From the NCBI GenBank assembly GCA_020050435.1, contig JAGVKQ010000011.1, forward strand, positions 3,350 through 67,349: a stretch of 64,000 bases of DNA, given 5' to 3'. This document shows, in pieces, positions 21,765 to 64,000 of the stretch; the stretch's first letter is position 1; each line of letters opens with the position of its first letter. A model generated the notes under the pieces. The model saw only the letters and a list, made by a program, of their open reading frames with translations, made no database searches and was not told the DNA's origin. The position numbers and the translations under genes were made by a program. The DNA is from Candidatus Caenarcanales bacterium (GTDB lineage Bacteria > Cyanobacteriota > Vampirovibrionia > 2-02-FULL-35-15).

Positions 21765-23435
21765 TTAAAGCTCAGCAGCAGCTAATTCACCACGTTTAAT
21801 AATTTCTTCTTTAGTTAGCTTTTCTTCACTAGAAACTGATTTGTAAAATTCAGAATCATATCTTCTAGTACGCACTACAATAGGCATTGGCATAGCATAG
21901 CCAAACATTAATACTTCTTGTTTAGGGTTTAGCTGGGAAAGAATAGCTTTTAATTCCTGTCCACCAGACTCCCCTACAAACACGGCATTGATATCATTCT
22001 CATCATTTAAAAGAAGAGTGGCTCTCGTTCCTATCTGAGACATTATTTCATTGTCGATTCCTGATGGTCTTTGATCTACGATTAAAAGGGTGACATTATA
22101 TTTTCTAAGTTCACGAGCTATGATGCCAAAAGTTGAAAATCTGGCTACCTGTGGAGATAAAAACTTATGTGCTTCTTCTATAGTGATAACTAATCTCTTA
22201 GGCGGCTGGTATTTATCTGGTGCTAATAAATACTTTTCAGTCATATCTACATAAGCTGCATGGATGTGTCTGGTAATAATGTTTGCAGCTAGCATATAAC
22301 TTTTTAAATTACTAAGTCTTCCAAACTGTAAAACTACACTTCTGCCACTGGTTAGAAAGCTAAGAATTTTTTTAATGCCATCAAAACTAGTGACTGATTT
22401 TAAGTATTTTACTGAATCTACTAATGTGTTTAATTTTCTTTGAAGAGCTAGTATGGAACCCTGATTAGCACCATACTGAGCACAGAACTCTTCTATGTGT
22501 CCTACTGTCATATTGCAAAGTTTATTAAACCAGTCTCTTTCATATTCTCTTTGAATCATTCGAGCATGATCTATCATAGCCTCAGATAAGCCTAGTTCGC
22601 TTTGAAGTAGTTCTAAGTCTTCTATATCTATCTGGCTAAATGCTATTTCTAATGTCTGTGCATCTTTAAATGTATAAGATTTATTGTCTGGATCTAGTGT
22701 GAAAACTTCTATCTTGTCGTTAAATAATTGCTTTAATCCTTTTGATGAGGCTTGTTTTTCATCTGTACCTTGCCAGCCGTACTCATTGTGCATGTCAAAA
22801 ATTAATACACTGGCAGCATCTTTTTTCAATATTCCTGAAAGAAGTATTCTGCTCAAGAATGATTTTCCTGTTCCAGACTTTCCAAACACAGCATTTGATC
22901 TTTCTACAAACTTTTCAAGATTTATACAAAGTGGAATGTCCATTTCAGCAGGATAGCCAATGTGAAAGTTTTTATTATTCTTTTCATCTTTCCCAAAGAT
23001 TTCTTCTATGTCATTTTCTGTGGCTTCATATACAGAGGAGAAGTGTGGTGGAATGGTTTTTACTTTAGGGACATCTTCTAAAGACTTTTTATTAGTTAAG
23101 TCGACCATTAAGAATGGAGTTAAATGTACTAATCCATATACAGAAGTACCCTTTAAAACCTCTTTAATAAAACTATCGTTAGGTGATGGAATATGATTTA
23201 AGAATTTAGCATTAGAAGATTGAAGTTCTATATCTGTAACCATTGAGAAAAATTTATTTCTTTCTCCTTGTATGACTACGAATTTCCCAATTCTTAATTT
23301 TTCAATATCATAGCTATTGTCTAATTTTAAAAGTAAGCCTTTAGTGAAGGATCCTGAGACCACCTGACCAACGAGGCTTTGTGCTAACGTGCCTACGTTC
23401 CCACGTTCCGACGAATCTGTTTTATAGTCCTTCAT
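21765..23435 (-). CDS. HerA/FtsK-like P-loop ATPase (DUF87-type, HerA-like helicase)
   Basis: 556 aa with an N-terminal beta-barrel-like region, Walker A FGKSGTGKSF, the HerA-typical ITIEEAHKF block, and Walker B/Arg-finger region LLIVDQRPSGID. Confidence 0.75.
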   Translation of the reverse strand: MKDYKTDSSERGNVGTLAQSLVGQVVSGSFTKGLLLKLDNSYDIEKLRIGKFVVIQGERNKFFSMVTDIELQSSNAKFLNHIPSPNDSFIKEVLKGTSVYGLVHLTPFLMVDLTNKKSLEDVPKVKTIPPHFSSVYEATENDIEEIFGKDEKNNKNFHIGYPAEMDIPLCINLEKFVERSNAVFGKSGTGKSFLSRILLSGILKKDAASVLIFDMHNEYGWQGTDEKQASSKGLKQLFNDKIEVFTLDPDNKSYTFKDAQTLEIAFSQIDIEDLELLQSELGLSEAMIDHARMIQREYERDWFNKLCNMTVGHIEEFCAQYGANQGSILALQRKLNTLVDSVKYLKSVTSFDGIKKILSFLTSGRSVVLQFGRLSNLKSYMLAANIITRHIHAAYVDMTEKYLLAPDKYQPPKRLVITIEEAHKFLSPQVARFSTFGIIARELRKYNVTLLIVDQRPSGIDNEIMSQIGTRATLLLNDENDINAVFVGESGGQELKAILSQLNPKQEVLMFGYAMPMPIVVRTRRYDSEFYKSVSSEEKLTKEEIIKRGELAAAEL

Positions 23436-23466
23436 AGTCCTATATTGTCCTTTATAGTCCTATAAC
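23421..23466. promoter_or_regulatory. Four helically phased 10-bp direct repeats (t-w-atagtcc; GGACTAT on the minus strand) spanning the pxpA stop, the 25-bp intergenic gap and the HerA-like start codon
   Basis: Read directly: tttatagtcc ttcatagtcc tatattgtcc tttatagtcc. The core is related to the GGACTAT cores of repeat family B. Confidence 0.3.
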
Positions 23467-27690: not shown

Positions 27691-28761
27691 TTGTTTAAAG
27701 GATATCCCTCAATGTCATCACTAATATATTTATCTGGTCCACAATCAAAAGTAAGTGATCCTTCTTTTCCTATTTCTACTGATTGGAAAACTTATGCAGC
27801 AAGTACTTTTATGAAATCAGGAATTAATGTTTCAAACCCAATTGAGCTCGATCTTTCAGGGTTTGTTAGTACTACTGATGATTCTGGCAATGCAATTAAA
27901 TACTCATTGAACTTAATAGATAAATCAGATTCTCTTCTAGCTAATCTTTCTCAGGTTGCAGAGTCTACTACTATGGAAATGTTTTACGCTCATAATCAAG
28001 GTAAGAGAGTTGTAGTAGTAGGTAGTGAACCATTTAGTCCTTGGGTAATGTTTCATTCTGAAGCTAGATTTCAAAGATTGAGAGATGCTCTGGATTACTT
28101 AGTAAGCAATTCTCATGGTGTAGATAATGTTATGTGGGCAAGTCAATTTGAATCTCAGTTAGTAAAAAGATCTGAACAGTTTCCACCTCATGGCGAAGCA
28201 GATTTTGAGTATTATGGGGGTGACATTCCTGTTTTAGTAATTGCTCCTCATTCCACTAGTTATTTTAGAGGTGGGAATTTATACTCTCAGGAATCATTTA
28301 CGGGCTCACTTTCAGTTTTACTTCATCGGTTGTCTGGTTGCCATAGTTTAATTAGTTCTTATTGTATGGCTGCAGACCCAGTTCTATACTTGAATTCCCC
28401 TTTTTCAAATTTCACATCTCAATTGATTAAAAAATCAAATGTAAAACTTGTTCTTGTTCTTAGAGGGCTTGAATGGTCAAATCACAACGACTTGATTTTA
28501 AATAACAGAAATAAAAACTCATTGATAAATAAAACTGAATATTTAAATCTTTTAACAAGTATGCTCAAAGTTAAAGAATTTAAAGATATTGGATTTGATT
28601 CACCAGACGTGGCTATTCATCCGTTTTTTGAAGATCTTCCTGTTCCAGTTTTAGAGATTCATGTAAATAAAAGGTATAGATTGCCTAGTTTACACCCCAC
28701 TCAATTTTCTAATCTTTATACAGCTCTTGCACAGTATTTAATGCTTGTTGGTATTGGTTAG
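27691..28761 (+). CDS. Fusion protein: an N-terminal nucleoside 2-deoxyribosyltransferase-like (NDT/Rcl-fold) domain plus a ~230-aa C-terminal domain of unknown function
   Basis: LIYLSGPQ at the N-terminus and ESTTMEMFYAHNQGKRVVVV resemble the NDT-family YLAGP and GTAFELGYAYALGKPV blocks. The C-terminal half has no recognisable motif. Confidence 0.45.
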   Translation: MFKGYPSMSSLIYLSGPQSKVSDPSFPISTDWKTYAASTFMKSGINVSNPIELDLSGFVSTTDDSGNAIKYSLNLIDKSDSLLANLSQVAESTTMEMFYAHNQGKRVVVVGSEPFSPWVMFHSEARFQRLRDALDYLVSNSHGVDNVMWASQFESQLVKRSEQFPPHGEADFEYYGGDIPVLVIAPHSTSYFRGGNLYSQESFTGSLSVLLHRLSGCHSLISSYCMAADPVLYLNSPFSNFTSQLIKKSNVKLVLVLRGLEWSNHNDLILNNRNKNSLINKTEYLNLLTSMLKVKEFKDIGFDSPDVAIHPFFEDLPVPVLEIHVNKRYRLPSLHPTQFSNLYTALAQYLMLVGIG

Positions 28762-28796: not shown

Positions 28797-29321
28797 TTAT
28801 TTGAACCTTCGCTTGAATTTAAATGCACTCTTGTAAATTGTTTTTAAATCTTTTTTTAAGACTGGATGAATCAATTTTTTTTCTAGTTCTAATAATGGAA
28901 TTAAAACAAAATATCTTTTTTCAATTTTTGGATGAGGAATGATCAAGTTCTTAGTTTTAACAATTTTATTTCCATAAAAAAGAATGTCTAGGTCAATTGT
29001 CCTGGAGAAATACTGACGAGATGGCGAAACGCCCCATCTTTTTTCTCTCCCCAGCTTCCTCTCAACCCCCTTGCAAACTTTTAGCAATTGCAATGGTGTC
29101 AGCGAGGTCTCTATTTTAATTGCCCCATTTAAAAAATAACCAGACTTAATCCCTTCTTGTGGTGGGTTTTTAAGCATTTTTGAAATTTGTATAATTTTTA
29201 TCTTTTTATTTTTGCTTAGTAGATCAAGAGCATTGTTAAGATTTTTCTTTCTATTGCCTTTATTTGTACCTATGCCAAGGAGGACGGTTGATGGTTTATG
29301 GTTTTTGGTTGATGATTTCAT
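28797..29321 (-). CDS. folK: 2-amino-4-hydroxy-6-hydroxymethyldihydropteridine pyrophosphokinase (HPPK)
   Basis: 174 aa. The IDLDILFYG motif and the GPRTIDLDIL-like region are typical of FolK. Confidence 0.85.
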   Translation of the reverse strand: MKSSTKNHKPSTVLLGIGTNKGNRKKNLNNALDLLSKNKKIKIIQISKMLKNPPQEGIKSGYFLNGAIKIETSLTPLQLLKVCKGVERKLGREKRWGVSPSRQYFSRTIDLDILFYGNKIVKTKNLIIPHPKIEKRYFVLIPLLELEKKLIHPVLKKDLKTIYKSAFKFKRRFK

Positions 29322-29606
29322 GATCTTATGGTTTGATAGTCTTATGGTCTCATAGCTTCATGGTTTTCTTAACCATTTAACCAAATTATGAATAATGAAC
29401 TCCATTCTTTTAACAAACAGATAAAACGTACTACGTTTTACCAAACCTTAAGTAAATTTTAATGATCTTATAAAAAATGGCCTTGACTTTAAAAGTTAAG
29501 ATTTAGTAAAGTGTAAGTATATAGTCAATGACTATAGTTCTAAAGTTCATATCTGATCTATATAAAATAAGCATATAAGATAACAATATTTAAGGAAGGC
29601 ATACAA

Positions 29607-30599
29607 ATGACAGCTATCAAAGTAGGTAATTACGACGCAAAAGTAAATATTACAGAACTTGCAAAGTTAACAAGTAAACCTTTTACTGACCAAACCCCAG
29701 TTCAAGAAGTTACCGCTGCAGTTGTTGGGTTAAGTGATGCTCAATTACAAACCCAAGGATTACTTACTAATCCTGATGATTCACAAGTAAATTTTCAAGC
29801 TTTTATTGCTCAAGTTACTAATGTTAGGCAGGCTATGGCTAAAGTCGCAGCTGCACAAAAAACGCTTGGTGCAACATTTAATATTCCAAAAGAAGGTGGA
29901 AGTCTTGATATTCCTGATGGAGTAAAACTAGAAGCTGCTTCATTAAAAGTTGATGATAGTAAAGGTTTCACATTGACGGAAACAGAAGGTAAATTAAATA
30001 TTCAAATCACAGATGCAATTAAGTTAGCTAAGGGTCAAAATCATGAGATATCTTACACCATTGATGGTGTACCGCAAAAGGCTACTATTGGAGTGACTCT
30101 TAAAGCTGAAAATGCACCAGCAGCAACAAAATTAAATGCTAATTTAGAGAAGGATGTTGAAACGCCACTAGACAAGGTCCTTCCTGGATTTTCAAATGTA
30201 ACTTTTGAAGGTTCACAAATTACTCAATCTACTAAAAAAGTAGGAGAGAAAGATGTTCCTCATATTAAGCATAGTTCTGATAAGGACTTTACCGTTAAAG
30301 GAAAAGGAACTAAGGATGGTAAACCTGATGTACCGTTTGAACTAACTATTAAAGCAAAAGCCGCAGAAACATCAAAGACTTGGTCACTTTGGGTTGGTGG
30401 AATTGCAGCAGTTCTTGGACTTGTAGGTGTAGGAGCAGCAGCTACTAGTGATGGTAGTGCTAAACCATGGGTAACATTGATAACTGGAGCATTGGCTGCA
30501 CTAGGACTTAAATGGGCTGTTGATAGCTATTTAGATAAACCAGGAGATACTAAACCAGGAACTACTCCAGCAACAAAACCAGTAACAAATCCAACATAA
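29607..30599 (+). CDS. Hypothetical membrane-anchored protein (330 aa) with two C-terminal Gly/Ala-rich TM helices and a Pro/Thr-rich tail
   Basis: There is a strong Shine-Dalgarno (AAGGAAGG). The protein has no signal peptide. C-terminal WSLWVGGIAAVLGLVGVGAAA and WVTLITGALAALGLKWAV helices are followed by KPGDTKPGTTPATKPVTNPT. Confidence 0.5.
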   Translation: MTAIKVGNYDAKVNITELAKLTSKPFTDQTPVQEVTAAVVGLSDAQLQTQGLLTNPDDSQVNFQAFIAQVTNVRQAMAKVAAAQKTLGATFNIPKEGGSLDIPDGVKLEAASLKVDDSKGFTLTETEGKLNIQITDAIKLAKGQNHEISYTIDGVPQKATIGVTLKAENAPAATKLNANLEKDVETPLDKVLPGFSNVTFEGSQITQSTKKVGEKDVPHIKHSSDKDFTVKGKGTKDGKPDVPFELTIKAKAAETSKTWSLWVGGIAAVLGLVGVGAAATSDGSAKPWVTLITGALAALGLKWAVDSYLDKPGDTKPGTTPATKPVTNPT

Positions 30600-30721
30600 A
30601 CTTTTTAAAGGAGGAAAGTCCGGGCAATTCATGAATTGCCTCTTCAGGTTAGGAAATAAATCATCGATCATTTTTTTAATTAATAATATATTTTAAGTTC
30701 TTTTTTTTATAATTTTATTTT

Positions 30722-31981
30722 ATGATTTTAATAACACTATCACCAATGCCAGCTATGTATACTACGACTAGTGGTCGTAGTAAATTAGCGACTCCACGTC
30801 AAAGCTATGTAGGAAAAGCTAATGATTTAATGGGTGATATGGCTACCCAAGGTAAAAAATTTGCTGGATATGGCTGGGGACTTTTTAATATTGTTGTTGC
30901 TACCTTAATGGGTGTAAGTAGCTCAATTAGTGCTACTTTTATGAAAGACAATACTGCCGGTGATGTAGTTGCTAAAGGTGGAATTGTCGGAGCTGTACTT
31001 TTTGCAATTGCTGGGCTTTGGAAAATTATTAAAGTAAGTTCAGAAAATACGAAAGCTGAAAAGAAACATGTAAAAACGACTCCTTGTGATGCTGAAGAGA
31101 GATTAAAAAAAGAAGCTTGGCATGCACTTGTAGAACTCAATAAAGAGGATGGGTCAGATTTACTTAAGCCTGCTTCTTCAGAAAACGATGTATTTGCTAA
31201 GACTCTATCTGGTCGAGAACTACCAAGTTCTTTACATTCTTTACACTGTGCAAGGTTTGATGTTTTACAAGACTTATGTCAAAAAGATATTTTAAGAATG
31301 GATAGAGATTATAGGAGTAATTATATTGTAAAAGGTCTTTTACCTACTGAAGAAGAGTTTATAGAGGTGTCAAAACTCAGTGATCAATATGCTTTTTCTA
31401 GAGCTATTCAGGTTGCTGTTAATAGTAGTGTTGGAACAATAAATTCTAGTGAAAGGGAATGTCTTCCTGCTGAGTTTGTACATGTTTATGAATCGATTGA
31501 ATGCTATAAAGACTATGAAAGTCAACTTGAGCAAAGAATTAAAGTGACTCAGGCTGAATTAAAAACTTTTTCTGATGCTGGTAATCATGTTAATAGTGAA
31601 AATTTAACCAAATATATAGAACAGATTACTACTATTCATAATCGTTTGAAAATACTACAACAAGCAATGGTGTTTGCTTCTAATACCACAGATCCTGCTA
31701 GTAATGAAGCAGATTTAAGAAAAGCAAGTTTATATAGATCTGCAATTGTTTCAGGCTTTGAAATTAGAGGAAATTCATTAGTTGATATTACTAATAAAAT
31801 AAATGAAGAATTAGTTAAGCCTGATGGTGTAAATGCTCGAGTAGAAGAATTAGATAAATTATTCAAATGTCTTGTAACGGATATTGCTGCTGTAAAAGAA
31901 TTTCCATATGAAATTAAACAAAGTGAAAACCCTGATTATCTAGGATTGATTTATTTTGAGAAAAAACCTATTTCTGTTTAG
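30722..31981 (+). CDS. Hypothetical membrane protein (419 aa) with two N-terminal TM helices and a large soluble domain
   Basis: [21 protein letters not shown] and [20 protein letters not shown] are TM helices. The remainder is helical and unannotatable. Confidence 0.5.
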
Positions 31982-32378
31982 ACTTTTTATAATCGACAGT
32001 AACTGAAGTGCTTATTCCACCACGAGCAGTAAAATCACCTTTTACAGTAAGCTCTCTAGGTTTTAAAACTTTTACTAAGTCATCTGAAATCTTATTTGTA
32101 ATAAATTCGTAAAAAATACCCTTATTTCTATAGTCTAAAAGATAATACTTTAAAGATTTTAATTCAATGCATAATTTATCGGGTATATAGTTAATTGTAA
32201 TTGTCCCAAAGTCTGGAAGCCCTGTTTTTGGGCATACTGATGTAAACTCAGGGCAATTAATAGAAATGCTGTAATTCCTTTTTGGATTTGGATTATTGAA
32301 TGTTTCTAAGATGTTTTTCTCTCTTTTATTCATATGATTTCTATTATATAGTGAATTATCGTATAGCGGATAGCGCAT
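31968..32378 (-). CDS. queF: NADPH-dependent 7-cyano-7-deazaguanine (preQ0) reductase
   Basis: 136 aa. [17 protein letters not shown] is the QueF catalytic-Cys motif, and the size fits the unimodular type. Confidence 0.9.
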
Positions 32379-32432
32379 ACTTTATAGAGGTGGTATCATA
32401 GAATGTTCAAGGTTTAGCATATAAAAGGTAAT

Positions 32433-33131
32433 TTGAAGTACATGTCAGACAAAGATAAAAATAAAAGTGTTGAAGATGAAAATATCACTATTAAGGATTC
32501 TGCAAATAAGCTAGATCTTTCAGAAGCGACTGTAAAAAAATATTTAAAGGATTTTGAACTCCCATTTGGTAAAGGTCCAGCAAATAAAGCATTGATTTCT
32601 AATGATACTTTTCAGGCTTTAACTGAAATTGCAAAACTTAGAGCTAATGGTTTATCTATCCAGGAAATTAAAGAATTAAAAACAGAAGAGCCATCTAAGC
32701 ACATTGCTGATGAAATTGAAGAAGTCCCAGTATTAGAACAAATTAAACCAAAAGAAGAAACAGAACTAGTAGAATCTTTAATTGCAGAAGAACTTACTGA
32801 AGTGTTAGATATTCCATCTTTAGAAGATTTATCAGCTTCTGAAAGTTCATCTGAAACAGCAGCAGATGCTGAAGAAGATGCGGCTGAAGGTACTCAAGAT
32901 GAATCTGAAGGTGAAGAAGACGAGTCTACTCAAAGACGTAGAAGAGGCTTTAACTATAGATATGTAGAAAGACAAATATCTGCAGATTCAAAAAGAGTTT
33001 CATCTATTAGAATACGATTAAAAAATCCAAATCTCTCTGTTCAAGACAGAATGTTTTTTGATGAAGCGCTTGAGAGAAGAATCTTATTTTTAAACGGTTG
33101 GAAACATATCCTTAAATGGATTGCAAAGTAA
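32433..33131 (+). CDS. Hypothetical protein with an N-terminal MerR-like helix-turn-helix and a long acidic (E/D/S-rich) linker
   Basis: The HTH-like segment is KLDLSEATVKKYLKDFELPF...GLSIQEIKEL. The acidic tract is AADAEEDAAEGTQDESEGEEDE. Confidence 0.35.
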   Translation: MKYMSDKDKNKSVEDENITIKDSANKLDLSEATVKKYLKDFELPFGKGPANKALISNDTFQALTEIAKLRANGLSIQEIKELKTEEPSKHIADEIEEVPVLEQIKPKEETELVESLIAEELTEVLDIPSLEDLSASESSSETAADAEEDAAEGTQDESEGEEDESTQRRRRGFNYRYVERQISADSKRVSSIRIRLKNPNLSVQDRMFFDEALERRILFLNGWKHILKWIAK

Positions 33132-34344
33132 ATCAATGCCTATTCGCTTTCTTACAGCAGGGGAATCGCACGGACCAGAATTAAACATTATTGTAGACGG
33201 TCTTCCTTCTAACTTGGAAATATTACCAGAGGATTTTGACATAGACCTTAAACGCAGACAAGGTGGCTATGGGCGTGGCGGAAGAATGAAGATTGAGAAA
33301 GATAAAGCTATCTTTACTGGAGGTCTTCGTCTTGGTAAAACCATGGGTGGACCAGTTTCCATCAGAATTACTAATAATGATTTTAAAAATTGGGATGTTT
33401 CAATGTCTCCTACTCCACAGGATTTAAATGATCCTTCTGTAAGAGAAAAAATTGATGCTAAGTTCATCTCTAAAGCAAGACCAGGGCATGCTGATTTAAC
33501 TGGTGCTATAAAGTACGGGCATGAAGATATAAGAAATGTGCTGGAAAGATCCAGTGCTAGAGAAACTACCAGTAGAGTGGTGGCTGGAGCTATTTGTAGA
33601 AAGCTTTTAAAGGTCATTGGAATCGATATTATTAGCTATGTTACTAGAATTGGATCAGTGTCTATTGAAGATGATGTTTTAGGACATGATTATCTAAGTC
33701 TTTATAAAAAAGCAGAATTGTCAGAGGTTAGATGCCCAGATGAAAAGACTTCAGAATTGATGAAAAAAGCAGTTGATGATGCCAGGTCTAAGGGCGACAC
33801 TATAGGCGGTGTTACTAAAATCATTGCTTTAAATCTACCCATAGGATTAGGCTCTTTTACTCACTGGGATAAGAGATTAAACGGTAGAATTGCTGGAGCT
33901 TTAATGTCAGTTCACACTGTTAAGTCAGTTGAAATTGGAATGGGAAAGAAAGTGGGAGAACTTTTTGGTTCTCAAGTACATGATCAAATTCAGATAAACC
34001 CTGAGTGGAAAAATGATAGATCTAGATATAAAAGAAAATCTAACAATGCTGGTGGCATAGAAGCTGGAATGACTAATGGTGAACCTATCGTTTGTACCGT
34101 AGCTACAAAACCTATTCCTACTCTTATTAAGCCCCTTGATTCCGTGGATATTAAAACTAAAACAAATACTCAGGCTCACTTTGAAAGATCTGATGTATGT
34201 GTTGTTCCAGCTGCTGGAGTTGTACTGGAAGCTATGCTTTCATATGTTTTAGCTGATGTTGTTTTAGAAAAATTCGGTGGTGATAGTGTAAAAGATCTTG
34301 TGGATAATTTTAAGAGATATCAGGAATATACTTGGGATAGGTAA
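33121..34344 (+). CDS. aroC: Chorismate synthase; the likely start is 33136 (MPIRFLTAGESHG)
   Basis: FLTAGESHGPEL together with the RPGHADLTG and SARETTSRV blocks are canonical AroC signatures. Confidence 0.9.
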   Translation: MQSKSMPIRFLTAGESHGPELNIIVDGLPSNLEILPEDFDIDLKRRQGGYGRGGRMKIEKDKAIFTGGLRLGKTMGGPVSIRITNNDFKNWDVSMSPTPQDLNDPSVREKIDAKFISKARPGHADLTGAIKYGHEDIRNVLERSSARETTSRVVAGAICRKLLKVIGIDIISYVTRIGSVSIEDDVLGHDYLSLYKKAELSEVRCPDEKTSELMKKAVDDARSKGDTIGGVTKIIALNLPIGLGSFTHWDKRLNGRIAGALMSVHTVKSVEIGMGKKVGELFGSQVHDQIQINPEWKNDRSRYKRKSNNAGGIEAGMTNGEPIVCTVATKPIPTLIKPLDSVDIKTKTNTQAHFERSDVCVVPAAGVVLEAMLSYVLADVVLEKFGGDSVKDLVDNFKRYQEYTWDR

Positions 34345-34463
34345 TAATTAAATTCATTTCAATTAAAGGCGAACAGACCAATTTTTTGTGCAGCCGGACA
34401 CTCGGATTGGAGGGCAAGCAAAAAATTTCGGTCTGTGAGCCAATTGAAATGATTAAAAACCGC

Positions 34464-35192
34464 CTATTTCTTTGCGATATGAATAGCCACAACACCACCA
34501 AAAATATTTTTATAAAAGCATTTAGTGAATCCTTTTTTTAATAATATTTCTTTTAATTCTTCTTGTGTATACCAGGTCTTTAATGACTCTGGTAGATAGG
34601 TGTAAGCATCTTTATCTCTAGCAAACAACTCTCCCATTTTTGGTACTAAGTTATAGAAGTATGTAAAAAATATTTTTCTCCATATGGGATTTACTGGATG
34701 ACCTAGATCTATGCACATAAAAACACCATCTTTTTTTAAGACTGAATAAATACTTTCTATGCATTTTTCTTTATTTACTAGGTTTCTTAACCCAAAACCA
34801 ATAGTTACTAAGTTAAAAGTACTTTTTGGGAAATCAATACTTTCCGAATCAATTTTTTTTACATTAATGTTTTTTAAATCATGATTGATTATCTTCTTTT
34901 CTAGGATTTGAAGCATTTCATCACAGTAGTCAGATGCAATAATTTCAGTTTTTGGGGATAATTTATTTAGTATTATGGACAGATCGCCAGTTCCAGTGCA
35001 TAAATCTAAAGCTTTATTACAATCTTTTACTTCTTTTAAGGCTAACTTTATTCCATCTTCTTTCCACTTCAAATGTCTGCCAAACGTCATTAAATTGTTT
35101 AAAAGATCATATTTTTTAGCTATTTTAGAAAATAGGTTATTTACATATGTTGATTTGCCGCTAGTATTTGATTTTTGTATTGTATCTTGCAT
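34464..35192 (-). CDS. ubiE: Demethylmenaquinone / ubiquinone C-methyltransferase (UbiE/MenG family)
   Basis: YDLLNNLMTFGRHLKWK matches the UbiE signature, and the SAM motif DLCTGTGDL is present. Confidence 0.85.
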   Translation of the reverse strand: MQDTIQKSNTSGKSTYVNNLFSKIAKKYDLLNNLMTFGRHLKWKEDGIKLALKEVKDCNKALDLCTGTGDLSIILNKLSPKTEIIASDYCDEMLQILEKKIINHDLKNINVKKIDSESIDFPKSTFNLVTIGFGLRNLVNKEKCIESIYSVLKKDGVFMCIDLGHPVNPIWRKIFFTYFYNLVPKMGELFARDKDAYTYLPESLKTWYTQEELKEILLKKGFTKCFYKNIFGGVVAIHIAKK

Positions 35193-46588: not shown

Positions 46589-46690
46589 GGAAGACCATTT
46601 AAACCATAGGACTATTGAGACTATAACGTTTTAAAGTATGGTCTTATCGTCTCCATAGTCTTTATTGTCTTTCCCTTAGTCTTCCCATAA
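46589..46690. repeat. Family B palindromic repeat, copy 1 (agaccattt...ataggactattgagac...atggtcttatcgtctccatagtcttt)
   Basis: It shares about 90 bp with 50054-50140 and carries the GGACTAT / ATAGTCC inverted cores. Confidence 0.5.
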
Positions 46691-46764: not shown

Positions 46765-47289
46765 ATGGCAGTTCCTACTGCAACAACTTCAGCACCAACA
46801 CCATCATCAACTGGATCAGCTCCTGCTGTTCAACCAGTTGATCCAAATAATCCTCCAAAGCCAGCAGCACCGACTACTGGAACAGGTGTAGCCGCACCTG
46901 GAGATAAATTTGTTAAAGCTGATAATGCTGAGACTAATGACACAGGAAAAGAAGAAGAAGCAAAAGGTGCAATGGCTTCAGTAAAAGCAATTTTAAGTAG
47001 AATACATTTATTAATAACATCTACAGTAAGGATTGTTAATTCTATGGCAAGGTTTGCCATATTTGGTACTGTTGTAGGTTTATCTAGACAAGGTGTTGAT
47101 TTACTTCAAGGATTACTAGGATCTGGTGATTTTAAGAATTCTGCTTTAAAAGGTAATCTCACAGGACTCTTGAGCTTAATTAATACTGTTTTAGGATCAG
47201 CTAAGGACTCTGCTAGTTTTTGGCAAGATGACATTAAAATTGTTAGAGATTTGAAAAAAGGATTTGATGATAACTCTAAACTTGCATAA
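46765..47289 (+). CDS. Hypothetical protein (174 aa) with a Pro/Thr/Ala-rich N-terminus and a hydrophobic middle
   Basis: There is a Shine-Dalgarno (AAGGA). The N-terminus is AVPTATTSAPTPSSTGSAPAVQP. It is the first gene of the co-oriented hypothetical cluster. Confidence 0.45.
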   Translation: MAVPTATTSAPTPSSTGSAPAVQPVDPNNPPKPAAPTTGTGVAAPGDKFVKADNAETNDTGKEEEAKGAMASVKAILSRIHLLITSTVRIVNSMARFAIFGTVVGLSRQGVDLLQGLLGSGDFKNSALKGNLTGLLSLINTVLGSAKDSASFWQDDIKIVRDLKKGFDDNSKLA

Positions 47290-47300
47290 ATTCTAGGTAA

Positions 47301-47331
47301 GGGTCTTGCATTCAAGACCCTCTGTTTATCT
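47301..47331 (+). terminator. Terminator hairpin gggtcttgcattcaagaccc followed by a T-rich tract
   Basis: It has a 7-bp GC-rich stem. The loop carries the gcattca motif shared with two other terminators in this cluster. Confidence 0.5.
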
Positions 47332-47445
47332 CCATCGAATAGTTTTACGACACCCCTTTTTTCATAACTTTCCTTTAATAATCCTCTGCTTAACTACATC
47401 CACGTAGGAGAGAAGTCTCAAATTGTATTTAGAAAAGGGTGATTT

Positions 47446-48090
47446 ATGTCAGATGGATTAAATATAGTAAGTCAAAATAATAAGAACTTAAGCACAGTTC
47501 TTGCGGCCGATAGTGTTAAATCAGACTTTCAAGGTAGTGACCAAAGAAAGCTTGGTGAAGACCTTATAAAAGAAAGCCTTAAGCATGCAGGTGATTCACA
47601 AGCACAAGCAGAAAAAGCAAGAGACTATTTAAATGCAGCAGATAATTTAGAAAGAATGGCTAAGGCTGTAAGATCTCAAGCAAAAAGAATTAAAGAAAAT
47701 GATGTTAAGCCTGAAGATGCAGTAAAACAAATATCAGAAGTTTTTGGTAACCAAGTTCAAATGCCTCTTCCTAAAGATGCTACACCTGAACAATTAGAAA
47801 GTATTGCAGATGATTTAGAAGCAAAAGCAAAAGAAAATAGAAGAATTGCTGATGATCTTTTAAAAGACTCTGAACATAAAGAAGCATTATCACTTAAATT
47901 AAAAGAACAAGCTATGTTAATGGTAAAAAAAGAAACAGGAGCAGATTCTCTTAGGATGAAGTCTGTAACTGCTCACAATGAAGGACTAAGTATGGTCTTT
48001 AAAAAGTTAGGAATTTACAACGTAGATATGCAGTACAAAGAACAGGTTGCATATGCTAGTAGAAAGGCTTCAGAGAAAGGTTTAATGTAA
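47446..48090 (+). CDS. Hypothetical charged alpha-helical protein (214 aa)
   Basis: There is a Shine-Dalgarno (AAAGGGTGA). The protein is K/E/A/D-rich and predicted helical, with no motif. Confidence 0.45.
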   Translation: MSDGLNIVSQNNKNLSTVLAADSVKSDFQGSDQRKLGEDLIKESLKHAGDSQAQAEKARDYLNAADNLERMAKAVRSQAKRIKENDVKPEDAVKQISEVFGNQVQMPLPKDATPEQLESIADDLEAKAKENRRIADDLLKDSEHKEALSLKLKEQAMLMVKKETGADSLRMKSVTAHNEGLSMVFKKLGIYNVDMQYKEQVAYASRKASEKGLM

Positions 48091-48129
48091 TTTCACTTAA
48101 AGGTGGAATTTAAATAAAGGAGAAAAGTT

Positions 48130-49980
48130 ATGTTTATATTACAGATAAATAATCCAGCACAAGTACAAAAAACAGGCAAAGGAAATGGAATTACAGATTT
48201 TCCTAATGGACAGGCAGCATGGAATGGAACAACCTATGGTTCACGTAAAGAAGCTGAAGCTGCTTGGAACGCCAGCTTTAACTCTAGGGGTGGTATGAGG
48301 GCTCCCCAAAACAATGGTGGTGGTAATGCTAAGGCACAACAAAAAGTAGCTCGTGGAAACGATATGATGCAAGGTGGTCATGCAAAAATTCAAGTAGGTA
48401 ATGATGATGTCCAAGGTGGAGGAGCTAAAGTAGAAAAAGGAAATGGAAATGTTAAGTCTGGTGGAGAGAAAGTTAAAACAGGAAATGAAAAAGTTAATGG
48501 AGGAAATACTAAACTCAAGTCAGGAAATGAAAAGATTGCAACAGGAAAAGGAAAGGTAGAAACTGGTAATACTAAAATAGAAGAAGGTAGTGCAAAAATT
48601 AAAGAAGGTCAAGAGAAACTAAATGGATCTCCTGCTAATGCAGATGCTCAAACTGGAATTAAAGAAGGAGAAGCTAAAATAAACTCCGGTAATGAAAAAA
48701 TTACAGGTGGTCAAACAAAACTTACAGATGGTCAAGCAAAACTTACAGATGGTCAAGGTAAGGTAACCGCTGGACAAGGAAAAGTTACTACTGGACAAGG
48801 ACTTGTTCAAACAGGTCAAGGAAACATACAGGCTGGAGGTGCAAAAGTTCAGGCAGGTCAAGCTACCGTTGCAGCAGGACAAGCTTTAGCTGGTCAAGCT
48901 CAGGCATTAATGGCAGATCCTAAAACTGCTGCTCAAGGTCAGGCAATGATGCAGCAAGCACAAGGTCAAATTCAAAAAGGACAAGCTGAAATCCAGGAAG
49001 GTCAACAAAAAATTCAACAAGGACAAAAAGAAGTTGCTGATGGTCAGTCTCAAATTCAAACTGGTCAAGCTGAAGTAAGTCAAGGGAATGCTGATGTTCA
49101 GAAAGGTCAAGCAGATATACAAGCTGGACAAGCAGATATTCAACAAGGACAGCAAGAAGTACAAGAAGGGCAACAAAAAGTAACTGAAGGTCAAGCAAAA
49201 ACAGATGGTAGTGCTGAAGCTGGTGAAGCAAATGAACTTATTAATGCAGGTAAAGCATTACTTGATGCAGGAAAAACTGAAGTCAAAGCTGGCAATGATG
49301 ATGTCAAAGCAGGAAGTGATGAAGTTGAAGCCGGAAAGAAAGATGTAGATGTTGGAAGTAAAGAGGTTGGAGAAGGAAATAAACTTGTAGAATTAGGAAA
49401 TAAAGATGTGGGCGATGGAAATAAAGATGTAGATAAAGGTCAAAAGAATATTGGTGATGGAAATAAAGATGTCCAGGCTGGACAAGATTTGGTAAAAGAA
49501 GGTGACGCTGCAGGCGGTGGTGGTGGTCCTGGCGGAGCTGGTGCTGGTGGTGCTCAACCACAAACCCCAGATGCATCAGGTGGAGCAAGTCCTGGTGGTG
49601 GTGATGGAGGCGGTGGTGATGGTAAAGAAGCAAAATCCGGTGATGGAACTGCTAATGGATACCTTCAGGCTGCAAAAGCTTTATTAAAACAAATTGGACA
49701 AATCTCGCAAGCAATGTCTGGAAATGCAAATCCTATTATTCAGATAGCTAAAAATCTTACGAATAAAGGACTTGCTGAACAAGCAGTTGCATATCTTGAA
49801 GCTGCACAGGTAGATTCTACCATTGGTGGTCAGTCTATAAATCAAGATATTATTCTTACAAAGGCTATGGCATCTACTTGTAAAGGTGATGCAGATACAA
49901 ACATAAACTTCTGGAAAGAAACTCTTGCAGACAACAAATCTCTTGGTAAGGCCACTCATGACTTAGCGAAGATGGCGTAG
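48130..49980 (+). CDS. 616-aa repeat protein made of more than 100 tandem heptads of the form G-[QN]-x-[KD]-[VI]-x-x, a poly-Gly linker and a conserved ~110-aa C-terminal module
   Basis: There is a strong Shine-Dalgarno (AAGGAGAAAAG). Examples of the heptads are GNEKVNG, GNTKLKS, GQADIQA and GQQEVQE. The C-terminal ANGYLQAAKALLKQIGQISQAM...DLAKMA module is shared with two downstream paralogs. Confidence 0.6.
   Translation: MFILQINNPAQVQKTGKGNGITDFPNGQAAWNGTTYGSRKEAEAAWNASFNSRGGMRAPQNNGGGNAKAQQKVARGNDMMQGGHAKIQVGNDDVQGGGAKVEKGNGNVKSGGEKVKTGNEKVNGGNTKLKSGNEKIATGKGKVETGNTKIEEGSAKIKEGQEKLNGSPANADAQTGIKEGEAKINSGNEKITGGQTKLTDGQAKLTDGQGKVTAGQGKVTTGQGLVQTGQGNIQAGGAKVQAGQATVAAGQALAGQAQALMADPKTAAQGQAMMQQAQGQIQKGQAEIQEGQQKIQQGQKEVADGQSQIQTGQAEVSQGNADVQKGQADIQAGQADIQQGQQEVQEGQQKVTEGQAKTDGSAEAGEANELINAGKALLDAGKTEVKAGNDDVKAGSDEVEAGKKDVDVGSKEVGEGNKLVELGNKDVGDGNKDVDKGQKNIGDGNKDVQAGQDLVKEGDAAGGGGGPGGAGAGGAQPQTPDASGGASPGGGDGGGGDGKEAKSGDGTANGYLQAAKALLKQIGQISQAMSGNANPIIQIAKNLTNKGLAEQAVAYLEAAQVDSTIGGQSINQDIILTKAMASTCKGDADTNINFWKETLADNKSLGKATHDLAKMA
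48340..49500 (+). repeat. Coding 21-bp tandem repeat array, the heptad repeats of the 616-aa protein
   Basis: There is a clear 21-nt periodicity, for example ggtcaagcagatatacaagct / ggacaagcagatattcaacaa. Confidence 0.7.
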
Positions 49981-50006
49981 TCTAGCGATTAGATTATTAG
50001 AAATTG

Positions 50007-50040
50007 AAAAGAGAAGGCATTCATGGTCTTCTCTTTTTGT
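50007..50040 (+). terminator. Terminator-like hairpin aaagagaaggcattcatggtcttctcttt followed by ttgtttgttt
   Basis: The stem is about 9 bp with one mismatch. The loop contains gcattca. Confidence 0.45.
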
Positions 50041-50053
50041 TTGTTTATCTTTT

Positions 50054-50140
50054 AAGACCATTTGACAATAGGACTATGGAGACCATGTCGTCTCACAAAA
50101 ATGGTCTTATGGTCTCCATAGTCTTTATAGTCTACCCCTA
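50054..50140. repeat. Family B palindromic repeat, copy 2 (taggactatggagaccat ... atggtctccatagtcttta)
   Basis: Its arms form an approximately 18-bp inverted repeat, and it is a near-copy of 46589-46690. Confidence 0.5.
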
Positions 50141-50217
50141 GATAACGTTCTCTTAAATATGTCCCTGTTAAATGTCCTGTAACTAGTTCAAAACTAGTAT
50201 AGGAATTTTACATTGTT

Positions 50218-51129
50218 ATGAGACATATAAATTCAACAAACAATATTAATAAAAAACCTGATGTAAATAAGTCAGATAATGCTTCTCAGGAGTCTCCTGC
50301 CCTAAAAGCAGCTAATGCAAAACTCTTACAATCAATGCAATCACAAGCTCAATCAATAAGAAATTTGTCACAAGCCCCATCACAAAATAATCAGGATTTA
50401 AATGTAATTAAAGATAGAAATCAATCTTTATTAGACTTTGATAAAGCTAAAGTTGAATCATTAAAAGAAGATTCTACTAATACAAATAATCAATCAATAG
50501 AAACAGAGGATGCTTCTGGTGGTAGTGCTTATAGTGGTGGATTTTTATTAGGCAAAGATGATTCTACTGGATATAAGGGATATGACCAGTCTCGTGCAAA
50601 TGATTGGAAAGAAGGTAAAGGAATATATTCTACTGGTGGAGCATATTCAACATATACAGGAAATGGTGCAGAAAATCTTAGTGGTTCTGGAGGAGCTGGT
50701 TCTGGTAATGCTGGAAATCAAAATGTAGGAGCTAGTTCTGGTAATGCAAATTCTGGTGGAGGAGTTTCTACTTCTGATAGCGGAAGTGCTGCTGGAAGTG
50801 CAAACGGATACTTGCAGGCTGCAAAAGCATTATTAAAACAAATCGGACAAATCTCACAAGCAATGGCTGGAAATGCAAATCCTATTATTCAGATAGCTAA
50901 AAACCTTACTAATAAAGGGCTTTCAGAGCAGGCAGTAGCATATTTAGAAGCAGCTCAGGTAGATACTACTCTCGGTGGTCAGGCTATAAATCAAGAAATT
51001 ATTTTAACGAAAGCTCAGGCAAGTACTATTAAAGGTGATTCAGATACTAATATTAATTATTGGAAAGAAACTCTTGCAGACAATAAATCTATGGGCAAGG
51101 CTACTCATGACTTAGCTAAGATGGCGTAA
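50218..51129 (+). CDS. Hypothetical protein (303 aa), paralog family member with an MxHINS N-terminus, a G/S/N-rich middle and the conserved C-terminal module
   Basis: The N-terminus MRHINSTNNINKKPD...KAANAKLLQSMQSQAQS is shared with the 51366 gene. The C-terminal 110 aa are about 85% nucleotide-identical to the 3' end of the 616-aa gene. Confidence 0.6.
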   Translation: MRHINSTNNINKKPDVNKSDNASQESPALKAANAKLLQSMQSQAQSIRNLSQAPSQNNQDLNVIKDRNQSLLDFDKAKVESLKEDSTNTNNQSIETEDASGGSAYSGGFLLGKDDSTGYKGYDQSRANDWKEGKGIYSTGGAYSTYTGNGAENLSGSGGAGSGNAGNQNVGASSGNANSGGGVSTSDSGSAAGSANGYLQAAKALLKQIGQISQAMAGNANPIIQIAKNLTNKGLSEQAVAYLEAAQVDTTLGGQAINQEIILTKAQASTIKGDSDTNINYWKETLADNKSMGKATHDLAKMA

Positions 51130-51159
51130 CGTAGCATAAATCGTTTTGTTAATTACCCT

Positions 51160-51187
51160 GTAGGGGCATTGCATTCAATGCCCCTAC
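51160..51187 (+). terminator. Strong terminator hairpin gtaggggcattg catt caatgcccctac followed by ctcttttac
   Basis: The 12-bp stem is perfect, and it contains gcattca as well. Confidence 0.6.
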
Positions 51188-51365
51188 TCTCTTTTACACC
51201 AACATTTTTATTGGACATTGTTCTCCTTGTTCTGTTCTCCCCTAAAAGTCCTTTTTGCCTTTATTCTCCTTTGTTCTCCTTTGTTCTCCATAACTTTCCC
51301 TTAAATATTCCCCTGTTAAATACCCTTTAACTAGCTCAAAACTAGTATAGGGATATTACATTGTT

Positions 51366-52643
51366 ATGAAGCATATAAATTCAATAAATGGAATTAACCA
51401 ACAGGCCGATTTAAGTAAGCCAGGTAATAACGTTGAGGATGTTTCATCACAAAAAGCTGCTAACAGTAAATTGCTTTCTTCTCTTCAATCACAATCTCAA
51501 TCAATGCGAGCTGCAGCACAAGATAATTCACAATTAAGTTCTAGTAAAATAAATGAAAGAGCAGAGTACTCTAAAGATTTTAATAACTCAAATAAAACAT
51601 CACAAGAGTCTAGCGAAACATCAGTAAATAAAATTAAAGAATCTATTGATTTAATGAGTAGTTCATTTTTCAAAAAGACTGAATCAAGATTACTTAAAGA
51701 ACAAGCAAAAACTGAACCTGGTGAAGTTGCTCAGGAATTAAAAAGACAATCTAAAGAAAAACTAAAAGAGGCAATAGCAGATTTTAGAGGTTCATTTAAG
51801 GCTTACAATAAATCACAAGAAGAGGATATGAATGCATTTCAAGCAAGCATGGACGCTTCTAATTCTCAAGACTTAGCTTCTGGTGCACAATCTCAATCTA
51901 ATCAAGCTCAAGTTAAAGCGGTGACTTATAATAATCAGGCAAATAGAACATCAGCAGAAGCTACAACTGTACAAACCCAACAAACACAAAGTCAGTCAGT
52001 GCAACCTCAGTCATCACAAACTCAGTCAGGAGAAACTAAGGATGCTTCTGGTGGGAGTTTATTTGGACCTAATGCAGGATTATTTTCAAATCCTTCCCCT
52101 ACTGCATACAATGGGATGGATCAATCTCGTGCTAATGATTCTCGTAATAGTAAAGGAATCTTTGCTACTGGAGGCGGAGTCTCAGAAATTACAGGAAATG
52201 GTGCAGTAAATTCTAACAATAATGCTAATGCTAATGCTAATGCTAGTGCTGGTGCTTCAAATGGTGCAGATCCTTCCGTTGACACTAATGGTGCTGATGG
52301 ACTTAGCGCTGCAGGTAATGCATATTTAGATGCAGCACGTATGATGCTTAGAGTAGTTATGCAAGTAACGATTGGTGCGAGAAGTTCAAATCCAATTGTT
52401 CAAATATCAAAAAACCTAACTAATAAATCTTTGTCCGACCAAGCTATAGCATATTTAGAAGCAGCAAACGTTGACACTGCTCTTAATGGTACAGCAGTAA
52501 ATCAACAAATAATTCTTACTAAAGCTCAAGCAAGTACTATTAGTGGTGAAGCACAAACAGGTATTAATTACTGGAAACAAGTTCTTGAAGGTAACAAACA
52601 ACTTCAAAAAGAAACACATGATATGTCTAAGGCTGCAGGGTAA
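51366..52643 (+). CDS. Hypothetical protein (425 aa), the third paralog, with an MKHINS N-terminus, a Q/S/N-rich middle and a more divergent copy of the C-terminal module
   Basis: MKHINSINGINQQAD...KAANSKLLSSLQSQSQS at the N-terminus and C-terminal GNAYLDAAR...NPIVQISKNLTNKSLSDQAIAYLEAANVD...ILTKAQAST...NYWK are shared with the other paralogs. The 5' leader is near-identical to that of the 50218 gene. Confidence 0.6.
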   Translation: MKHINSINGINQQADLSKPGNNVEDVSSQKAANSKLLSSLQSQSQSMRAAAQDNSQLSSSKINERAEYSKDFNNSNKTSQESSETSVNKIKESIDLMSSSFFKKTESRLLKEQAKTEPGEVAQELKRQSKEKLKEAIADFRGSFKAYNKSQEEDMNAFQASMDASNSQDLASGAQSQSNQAQVKAVTYNNQANRTSAEATTVQTQQTQSQSVQPQSSQTQSGETKDASGGSLFGPNAGLFSNPSPTAYNGMDQSRANDSRNSKGIFATGGGVSEITGNGAVNSNNNANANANASAGASNGADPSVDTNGADGLSAAGNAYLDAARMMLRVVMQVTIGARSSNPIVQISKNLTNKSLSDQAIAYLEAANVDTALNGTAVNQQIILTKAQASTISGEAQTGINYWKQVLEGNKQLQKETHDMSKAAG

Positions 52644-55018: not shown

Positions 55019-55105
55019 GGACAGGTGTTCGAGTGGTTTATGAAGATAGTCTTGAAAACTATTGATGCCGTAAGGTATCCGGGGGTTCGAATCCCTCCCT
55101 GTCCT
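55019..55105 (+). tRNA. tRNA-Ser (anticodon UGA), class II with a long variable arm
   Basis: Manual fold: acceptor ggacagg/cctgtcc, D-arm ttc/gaa, anticodon stem atagt/actat with loop cttgaaa (anticodon TGA), a long variable arm, and T-arm ggggg-ttcgaat-ccctc. CCA is not encoded. Confidence 0.8.
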
Positions 55106-63790: not shown

Positions 63791-64000
63791 AGCCATGGAG
63801 AGTTTGATCCTGGCTCAGGACGAACGCTGGCGGCATGCCTCATACATGCAAGTCGAACGCCCCGCAAGGGGAGTGGCGTAAGGGTGAGTAACGCGTAGGA
63901 ATCTGCCTTAGACTGGGGGATAACCTGGGGAAACCCGGGCTAATACCGCATATTGCCGAGAGGTGAAAGATTTATCGGTCTAAGATGAGCCTGCGTATGA
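63791..64000 (+). rRNA. rrs: 16S ribosomal RNA, 5' end only; the gene continues beyond the window
   Basis: AGAGTTTGATCCTGGCTCAG at 63799, then GACGAACGCTGGCGGCATGCCTCATACATGCAAGTCGAACG, then GAGTAACGCGTAGGAATCTGCC. Confidence 0.9.

Follow-up and report, generated by a model that had tools for sequence, protein, structure and literature searches.

A hypervariable gene pair for predicted hairpin-anchored membrane proteins between folK and queF in non-photosynthetic relatives of Cyanobacteria

What kind of locus is formed by the two open reading frames (ORFs) that lie side by side between folK and queF in the genome of a Candidatus Caenarcanales bacterium? The two ORFs, here called A (330 amino acids) and B (419 amino acids), are located on the forward strand of a 64,000-nucleotide stretch of contig JAGVKQ010000011.1 (assembly GCA_020050435.1, positions 3,350 to 67,349), which is referred to as the window and from whose first letter positions are counted. 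The initial annotation described an islet of two co-oriented, lineage-specific membrane proteins and proposed a toxin-immunity pair, an effector-chaperone pair or host-interaction proteins. The two genes are present as described, and they belong permanently to a housekeeping block that is conserved in the relatives, and are not an acquired insertion. We favor a reading in which A and B form a core, hypervariable, hairpin-anchored pair that has been shaped by selection for conflict or specificity and that is neither an islet nor a toxin-immunity cassette, and we give this reading an even chance of being right.

A fixed pair in a conserved housekeeping block

An A-like gene whose product ends in a membrane anchor, followed on the same strand by a B-like gene, is found between folK and queF in 14 of the 14 distinct loci that contain the region. 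These loci (designated by L numbers) are all from Melainabacteria/Vampirovibrionia metagenome-assembled genomes (MAGs) and metagenomes, and were collected by scanning genomes for queF, by looking up contigs, and by scanning metagenomes for the neighboring MerR gene. The folK gene adjoins the A-like gene in the window and in L003, L004, L005, L083, L086, L089, L090, L094, and L097, and queF is next to B in every locus with the downstream side present. The surrounding block reads DUF58-ACAD-orf66-NDT-like-folK-A-B-queF-MerR-aroC-ubiE-TPR-fabD-dnaG. The distance between A and B is 122 nt in the window and 16 to 109 nt in the other loci, and the two genes are probably co-transcribed, judging from these short same-strand gaps. 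The GC content of the A-B region (0.33-0.39, compared with 0.27-0.38 in the flanks) is ordinary. The constant pairing of the two genes thus agrees with the initial annotation, while the term islet had to be abandoned, as had the statement that A and B are the only forward-strand genes in a minus-strand run, since the genes at 27691-28761, 32433-33131, and 33121-34344 are on the forward strand as well.

The scarcity of homologs that suggested an orphan pair depends on the search. Word-indexed searches returned the window proteins themselves and a single relative of B (32% identical), and none of A; the 1.5-kb contig of that relative carries an A-like C-terminal tail, then B, and then a convergent queF. 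A scan of GTDB genomes with B patterns gave no match, and a profile built from five B sequences retrieved five proteins only. A profile search of 1.84 billion representative proteins with B, by comparison, gave 54 matches, about 50 of them full-length (408-477 amino acids). The queF-based scan of species-representative genomes yielded three syntenic MAGs, two labeled Candidatus Melainabacteria and one labeled as an uncultured gammaproteobacterium. The latter (L003, CAZRTB010000003.1, "uncultured Gammaproteobacteria bacterium") has full synteny with the Melainabacteria loci and 58% to 89% identity in all block genes but A and B, and its label is probably wrong.

Among 80 queF loci from many phyla, the relatives of B are confined to Melainabacteria-type loci. 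As far as these sequence searches reach, the pair is restricted to a single clade among the non-photosynthetic relatives of Cyanobacteria (Melainabacteria/Vampirovibrionia). The lineage restriction proposed at the outset is therefore retained, and conservation across many phyla with a known function, which would have spoken against it, was not seen. Nothing on the A or B proteins was found in the literature.

Allele replacement and selection

Across the clade, the flanking genes are 50% to 78% identical to those of the window at the amino acid level; for B the identity does not exceed 23%, and for A no match is returned by BLAST. The same is seen in a graded series of closer pairs of loci: flank identities of 92%, 81%, and 73% are accompanied by identities of 10%, 14%, and 38% for A, and of 86%, 53%, and 49% for B.

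Two close comparisons show how this divergence is distributed. Between L005 and L089, in which the flanking genes have a synonymous divergence (dS) of 0.16 to 0.31, the A coding sequences (232 and 322 amino acids) are unalignable (BLASTP E = 0.11), and the DNA is 97% identical until 5 nt before the A start and again from the A stop onward. The B genes of this pair are 84% identical, with a ratio of nonsynonymous divergence (dN) to dS (omega) of 0.39 and a patch at codons 201 to 244 where dS is 0.98. The second comparison involves a relative of the window with about 92% average nucleotide identity (L093), which is 91.8% identical to positions 32130-35191 over 3098 nt and has a flank dS of 0.09 to 0.34. 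The B contig of this relative (L001/L002, from the same sample as L093) was recovered identically by two independent assemblies. In its alignment with the window, the 65 nt upstream of B, up to the ATG, are 93.8% identical; codons 1 to 42 then have a dN of 1.36 and a dS of 1.42, the hairpin segment is 82.8% identical in nucleotides (dN 0.14, dS 0.49), and the soluble domain has a dN of 0.87, a dS of 1.09, and an amino acid identity of about 25%. Nucleotide identity returns at 31963, the point at which the queF coding sequence begins to constrain the DNA, and the end overlapping with queF is 92.8% identical. A dS several-fold above that of the flanks cannot have arisen in place; these are old alleles, either introduced by recombination or maintained under balancing selection.

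The histories of alleles and flanks are also in conflict. The A anchor of L089 matches that of L086 (E = 3e-9, flank identity about 66%) and not that of L005 (flank identity 92%), and L005 shares an A anchor type with a single transmembrane (TM) segment with L090. The best-conserved part of B in close and intermediate pairs is the hairpin, with 78% to 100% identity compared with 25% to 88% for the soluble part.

Within an allele the picture is different. In the pair L083 and L106, which carry the same alleles, omega is as low as 0.13 for A and 0.15 for B, which indicates that both genes encode functional proteins. In L005/L089 and L086/L094, omega rises to 0.28 to 0.42, compared with 0.03 to 0.18 for most flanking genes, the exception being folK with 0.31 in L005/L089. 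Taken together, the replacement of alleles, the age and divergence of alleles with one fold, and the purifying selection within alleles point to diversifying or balancing selection on an interface of conflict or specificity.

The two proteins and their surroundings

Protein A has no signal peptide and no N-terminal hydrophobic segment; its only two hydrophobic segments are the Gly/Ala-rich helices near the C-terminus (residues ~258-280 and 287-308), which are followed by the Pro/Thr-rich tail KPGDTKPGTTPATKPVTNPT, in agreement with the initial annotation. Positional homologs of A are present in 13 loci and range from 205 to 547 amino acids, with similarity limited to the C-terminal anchor. The alleles with a hairpin share the pattern (G)FW..W, TM1, an acidic loop S[DE][DE]..GK, and a Gly-rich TM2, and the tails of other alleles are likewise rich in G, K, T, A, P, and S. 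A minority type with a single C-terminal TM segment (L005 11810-12508 on the reverse strand, L090 3442-4338) has the motif NWNK..G..YA..I....F.GR, and the L005 allele also contains a long (A/G)-rich low-complexity run.

The topology described earlier for protein B, that is, two N-terminal TM helices (residues ~50-72 and 84-105) and a large soluble domain, was likewise reproduced; the latter has about 310 residues and is mostly helical. Among 49 aligned family members, two N-terminal hydrophobic segments are found in most and at least one in all, and the median hairpin loop is 11 amino acids. Near-invariant positions are G60, D81 in the loop, G98, F252, A341, and L342; no conserved pattern of catalytic-type residues was found in the soluble domain. 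The start MT(A/T)(I/L)A is semi-conserved, and the motifs LPxEF..VY, NxLKxL, R..LRxAL, and FP[YF] are retained across alleles. An earlier AlphaFold run with five sequences was poor (predicted local distance difference test, pLDDT, of 51), and the AlphaFold2 model from the 49 sequences reached a pLDDT of 80.5 and a predicted template modeling score (pTM) of 0.73. In this model, a disordered N-terminal tail of about 28 residues (pLDDT < 50) leads into a hairpin of two long antiparallel helices (H29-73 and H79-116), beyond which a helical bundle and a small β element with the C-terminal FPY motif are predicted. No specific structural neighbor was found for this confident model. On the basis of the motifs and the model, the soluble domain of B is predicted to keep one fold across alleles. 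The mean count of Lys and Arg in the B family (n = 49) is 2.1 before TM1 and 3.3 after TM2, and the loop is net acidic.

Searches of A, B, and their homologs against Pfam, NCBIfam, PADLOC, and PHROGs gave chance-level matches only, and the sole resemblance to PDB sequence profiles was to the transporter sialin, in TM composition. The sole match in PADLOC-DB 2.0 was a chance-level CorA-like one (E = 0.012, 13.7 bits). The family PF20712 (CyanoTRADDas_TM) matched A with 13.2 bits (E = 0.099), below the gathering threshold of 24.3 bits, and matched one of 49 B relatives with E = 0.016; both matches are probably compositional. Several specific candidates were rejected. A phage origin is not borne out, since no viral loci were found and the lone tblastn match (L109) failed the family hidden Markov model. 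A holin/antiholin pair does not fit proteins of 330 and 419 amino acids (compared with less than ~150), neighbors such as folK and queF, and the lack of a PHROG match or viral relative. As for a toxin-immunity cassette, neither the window proteins nor their homologs have a recognizable toxin or immunity domain according to Pfam, NCBIfam, PADLOC, and PHROGs, nor is there a small immunity gene after B, where the convergent queF abuts B in all loci.

The features of the locus are collected in Table 1.

Table 1. Features of the folK-A-B-queF locus, in window coordinates
Feature	Position	Strand	Details
folK (HPPK)	28797-29321	-	Pfam HPPK, E=1.6e-32; bounds the conserved locus on its upstream side
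Short, degenerate tandem array of ATRGTCY / ATGGTTT units	29286-29367	.	Tandem Repeats Finder rows 29286-29366; overlaps folK 5' end and folK-A spacer
folK/A divergent intergenic region	29322-29606	+	Shine-Dalgarno-like AAGGAAGG at 29592-29599, 7 nt 5' of A ATG
ORF A, 330 amino acids	29607-30599	+	variable soluble N-terminal part (aa 1-257), C-terminal membrane hairpin, low-complexity tail
A membrane hairpin	30378-30530	+	TM1 aa 258-280, acidic/Gly loop TSDGSAKPW, TM2 aa 287-308; from hydropathy
A tail KPGDTKPGTTPATKPVTNPT	30537-30596	+	imperfect 12-15-nt repeats
A-B spacer, 122 nt	30600-30721	+	palindrome 30622-30641; AT-rich 30662-30721, 94% conserved to B start codon
ORF B, 419 amino acids	30722-31981	+	predicted disordered N-terminal tail, N-terminal membrane hairpin, helical soluble domain, small C-terminal β element (FPY motif)
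B hypervariable N-terminal tail	30722-30847	+	codons 1-42
B hairpin module, codons 43-105	30848-31036	+	TM1 aa 50-72, 11-aa loop with near-invariant Asp81, TM2 aa 84-105
B hypervariable soluble domain	31037-31962	+	
queF	31968-32378	-	Pfam QueF, E=8e-31; downstream boundary gene, convergent to B

The 3' ends of B and queF overlap by 14 nt (31968-31981). Matches to the sigma-70 consensus promoter in the folK/A region are not more frequent than expected by chance. Just 3' of the A stop (30607-30641), the A-B spacer contains a Shine-Dalgarno-like AAAGGAGGAAAG, a palindrome with an 8-bp stem, and a possible short ORF of 21 codons starting at 30631. The palindrome and the start of this short ORF are within a 40-nt segment that is absent from the closest relative (in the alignment with L001), and are therefore probably not functional. 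An intrinsic terminator or structured RNA in this spacer was rejected, as the fold is no better than that of shuffled sequences (z = 0.25).

The repeat fragments reported on the folK side are real and belong to the degenerate ATRGTCY array of Table 1. Clusters of this repeat are located at 23424-23461, 29328-29367, 46592-46662, and 50055-50134, and six were observed in the window compared with 0.02 in shuffles. Two of the sites are inverted double arrays 5' of genes with no recognized family (46765 and 50218), and one site is 5' of A. Since the relatives lack it at their orthologous loci, it is a species-specific intergenic repeat and not an island boundary; as a boundary the array was also rejected for being one-sided. 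Possible identities are a shared operator and a small repeat peculiar to this species.

In several relatives the spacer between folK and A carries toxin-antitoxin (TA) modules, namely a 79-aa gene with a PIN gene and a 61-aa gene with a PemK gene (insertions at L089 5583-6236 and L090 2625-3127, and also in L091, L092, and L102). This spacer is thus an insertion hot spot, with A and B staying in place, and the PIN and PemK modules are separate genes that adjoin the pair.

Among the other genes of the window, the one at 27691-28761 (forward strand) encodes a 356-aa protein with weak, sub-threshold matches to nucleoside 2-deoxyribosyltransferase only, is probably an uncharacterized enzyme, and is the most conserved gene of the block (99% amino acid identity and an omega of 0.03 between L005 and L089). 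The gene at 32433-33131 (forward strand), which always adjoins queF, encodes a lineage-conserved MerR-type helix-turn-helix protein, the middle of which is acidic and of low complexity, whereas its C-terminus (RRRGFNYRYVERQI...LERRILFLNGWKHILKWI) is invariant. The forward-strand region 46765-52643 contains five ORFs that have no Pfam family match, save for a repeat-driven β-roll match in the 616-aa ORF. Three of them (616, 303, and 425 amino acids) are paralogs with a common C-terminal domain of about 100 residues (ANGYLQAAKALLKQIGQISQAM...INYWKETLADNK...THDLAKMA) and low-complexity N-terminal parts; the 616-aa ORF contains extended stretches of 7-aa (21-nt) repeats and has a weak match to an antifreeze β-roll model. 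The sole tRNA gene of the window is at 55019-55105, and the 5' end of a 16S rRNA gene (63792-64000) runs off the window end.

Interpretation and rival explanations

Several known systems resemble the pair in part. Hypervariable segments with sharp edges in near-identical flanks, with old cross-species alleles moved by homologous recombination, are a feature of the agr and com pherotype regions and of hsdS in type I restriction-modification systems, and adjacent variable genes in such cassettes may have to match. The sharp-edged variable segments and recombining old alleles of A and B are alike, whereas signal peptide, kinase, peptidase, and methylase components are missing here, and the membrane part that varies in agr is the conserved one in A-B. 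Two-TM membrane effectors are also used by conflict systems such as CBASS and Pycsar. The Gly/Ala-rich two-helix hairpin with a variable soluble module is common to A-B and to such two-TM conflict effectors (PF20712 CyanoTRADDas_TM, SLATT-type); unlike these, the A-B pair is core and universal and not sporadic, has no nucleotide-signaling, TRADD-N, or other conflict genes, and gives no PADLOC match. Passages in reports on the phytoplasma proteins Imp, IdpA, and Amp (PMC12114192, PMC10003417, bioRxiv 10.1101/2020.06.01.128413) describe highly variable membrane-anchored proteins, encoded between conserved genes and under positive selection, in which the anchors are kept and the hydrophilic domains have diverged. 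The A-B locus, with hypervariable membrane-protein genes between conserved flanking genes, is comparable by analogy only: there is no homology, and the phytoplasma proteins are exposed to the host by a wall-less cell, whereas the present organism is a diderm (OEP/TolC, AcrB, MlaEFD) with variable domains that are predicted to be cytoplasmic.

The closest architectural likeness is to the Inc proteins of Chlamydiae, which are defined by two TM helices with fewer than 30 amino acids in the loop between them and often have helix-rich soluble parts (PMC3048545). Both A and B have such a bilobed domain, with loops of about 9 and 11 amino acids, respectively; B also has a short unstructured N-terminus before the hairpin, the soluble domains are helix-rich, there is little conservation beyond the hairpin, and the genes are adjacent, as is often the case for Inc genes (PMC3048545, PMC3656976). 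One could therefore consider exported, Inc-like effectors, with the disordered N-terminus as signal, the bilobed domains inserted in the membrane of a prey or host, and the variable domains engaged in an arms race in the cytosol of the victim. The semi-conserved start of the disordered tail of B is in line with this, and so is the fast divergence at fixed positions, which passages in PMC3290821 describe as typical of Inc genes too; moreover, the class member Vampirovibrio chlorellavorus is an obligate predator with a predicted use of a type IV secretion system (PMC4451040). Inc proteins are described as confined to the phylum Chlamydiae, though, to which the present organism does not belong; the nearest fully syntenic genomes are Candidatus Melainabacteria MAGs, with no known type III secretion system or host. 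Neither the 64-kb window nor the loci retrieved from relatives contain a gene for a type III or other secretion system; the window encodes an ordinary diderm envelope and biosynthesis (TolC/AcrB/HlyD, MlaEFD, folate, queuosine, chorismate, acetolactate synthase), and the samples are groundwater and wastewater. The hairpin is the best-conserved part here and that of A is C-terminal, after 205 to 480 residues, and there is a single copy per locus, compared with dozens of paralogs in the case of Inc genes. Even in Chlamydia, possession of a bilobed domain is not enough to ensure translocation (PMC3048545). We regard this explanation as quite unlikely.

A recently acquired islet, or spurious ORFs, would agree with the near absence of homologs in word-indexed searches, the one-sided repeat array, and the strand switch relative to folK and queF, and is refuted by the synteny and selection data: positional homologs in all 14 loci, about 50 full-length relatives of B, purifying selection, ordinary GC, and no integrase, tRNA, or flanking direct repeat at the pair, so that its probability is close to nil. 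What remains is to say which kind of core pair would behave in this way. An inner-membrane-anchored scaffold of low constraint, active in division, cell shape, or membrane organization, could be fixed as a single copy in a housekeeping block throughout the clade, would show purifying selection within alleles, and would agree with a helical bundle devoid of conserved catalytic-type residues in B and with the low-complexity stretches and variable length of A; its hypervariability would result from relaxed constraint and occasional neutral recombination. Neutral change in place, however, cannot give a dS of 1.1 to 1.4 in segments of B next to flanks with a dS of 0.09 to 0.34, nor can it explain why, at a flank dS of about 0.2, the A genes are unalignable and the breakpoints coincide with the coding-sequence ends. 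In addition, A or B was replaced in two of three close pairs while no flanking gene except folK in L005/L089 has a raised rate, and the histories of alleles and flanks are discordant. The scaffold explanation therefore appears unlikely, although it is by no means far-fetched. A toxin-immunity or cognate specificity pair, in which a membrane-active toxin or identity determinant and its partner have variable regions that co-evolve for allele-specific binding, would account for two adjacent hypervariable genes in conserved flanks, for a polymorphic-toxin-like layout of B (conserved N-terminal module, variable C-terminal domain), and for the coincidence of the A swap with a diverged patch of B at codons 201 to 284 in L005/L089; genuine TA modules are also drawn to the neighboring spacer in relatives. 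Yet Pfam, NCBIfam, and PADLOC contain no matching toxin, immunity, or TA family, the N-terminal tail of B varies too, its variable domain retains one fold and its motifs where toxin domains swap between unrelated folds, no small gene follows B, and the pair is present once in the core block of every locus, with two large proteins and no export signal or delivery system. The co-variation comes from one pair only, and we consider this explanation improbable.

The proposal that A and B are candidates for conflict or host interaction thus survives in part: allele replacement, saturated dS, and raised omega fit it, and a toxin, immunity, chaperone, or defense family was not detected. In the conflict-or-specificity reading that we favor, each protein would have a two-helix hairpin, C-terminal in A and N-terminal in B, as its anchor in the cytoplasmic membrane, with the soluble parts and both termini on one side of the membrane. 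This side is most likely the cytoplasm, because signal peptides are absent and there is a modest positive-inside bias. The hairpins, above all that of B with its near-invariant loop Asp and helix glycines, would be the constrained functional membrane core, and those of A and B may pack as a hetero-oligomer. The soluble parts would then be a polymorphic recognition surface, represented by old and highly diverged alleles that keep one fold, are presumably exchanged by homologous recombination with breakpoints at the ends of the coding sequences or at domain borders, and are subject to purifying selection within an allele lineage. The concrete mechanism that we would prefer, although only tentatively, is one in which the variable cytoplasmic domains recognize invading elements, for instance phages or plasmids, or are targeted by them, whereupon the hairpins cause exclusion or permeabilization at the membrane. 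Less probable still is a core-encoded, allelically diversified membrane module of an unrecognized kind with old alleles kept by balancing selection across species, be it Inc-like effectors that a Vampirovibrionia clade delivers into prey or host membranes, which would be the first such set outside Chlamydiae, or a chromosomal exclusion or abortive-infection device with a hairpin effector and recombining cytoplasmic sensors.

Several points weigh against the conflict-or-specificity reading. No homology ties A or B to phage defense or to any function, the PADLOC and PHROGs searches being empty and viral relatives absent. Defense genes are usually patchy in distribution and not fixed within a core block, and helical scaffold proteins may diverge quickly even if no conflict is involved. 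Only a small number of comparisons is decisive, with three close pairs and 63 to 316 codons per segment; L001 is only 1.5 kb in length, and the A allele of this relative is visible as a 44-aa tail only. The Lys and Arg counts around the hairpin of A are indecisive for its orientation, and an hhalign comparison of the A and B hairpins gave a homology probability of 3%.

What looks like an "orphan islet" when one genome is considered can be a core locus that is masked by extreme divergence. To our knowledge, the non-photosynthetic relatives of Cyanobacteria are uncultured but for one predator, and next to nothing is known about how their cells work or which ecological interactions they have. A pair that is found in every clade member, evolves fastest in its neighborhood, and has domains swapped between species is a pointer to contact with an antagonist or partner, which may be phage, prey, or kin. 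The two new protein families also suggest a testable design, that is, a constrained membrane hairpin combined with an interchangeable soluble domain.

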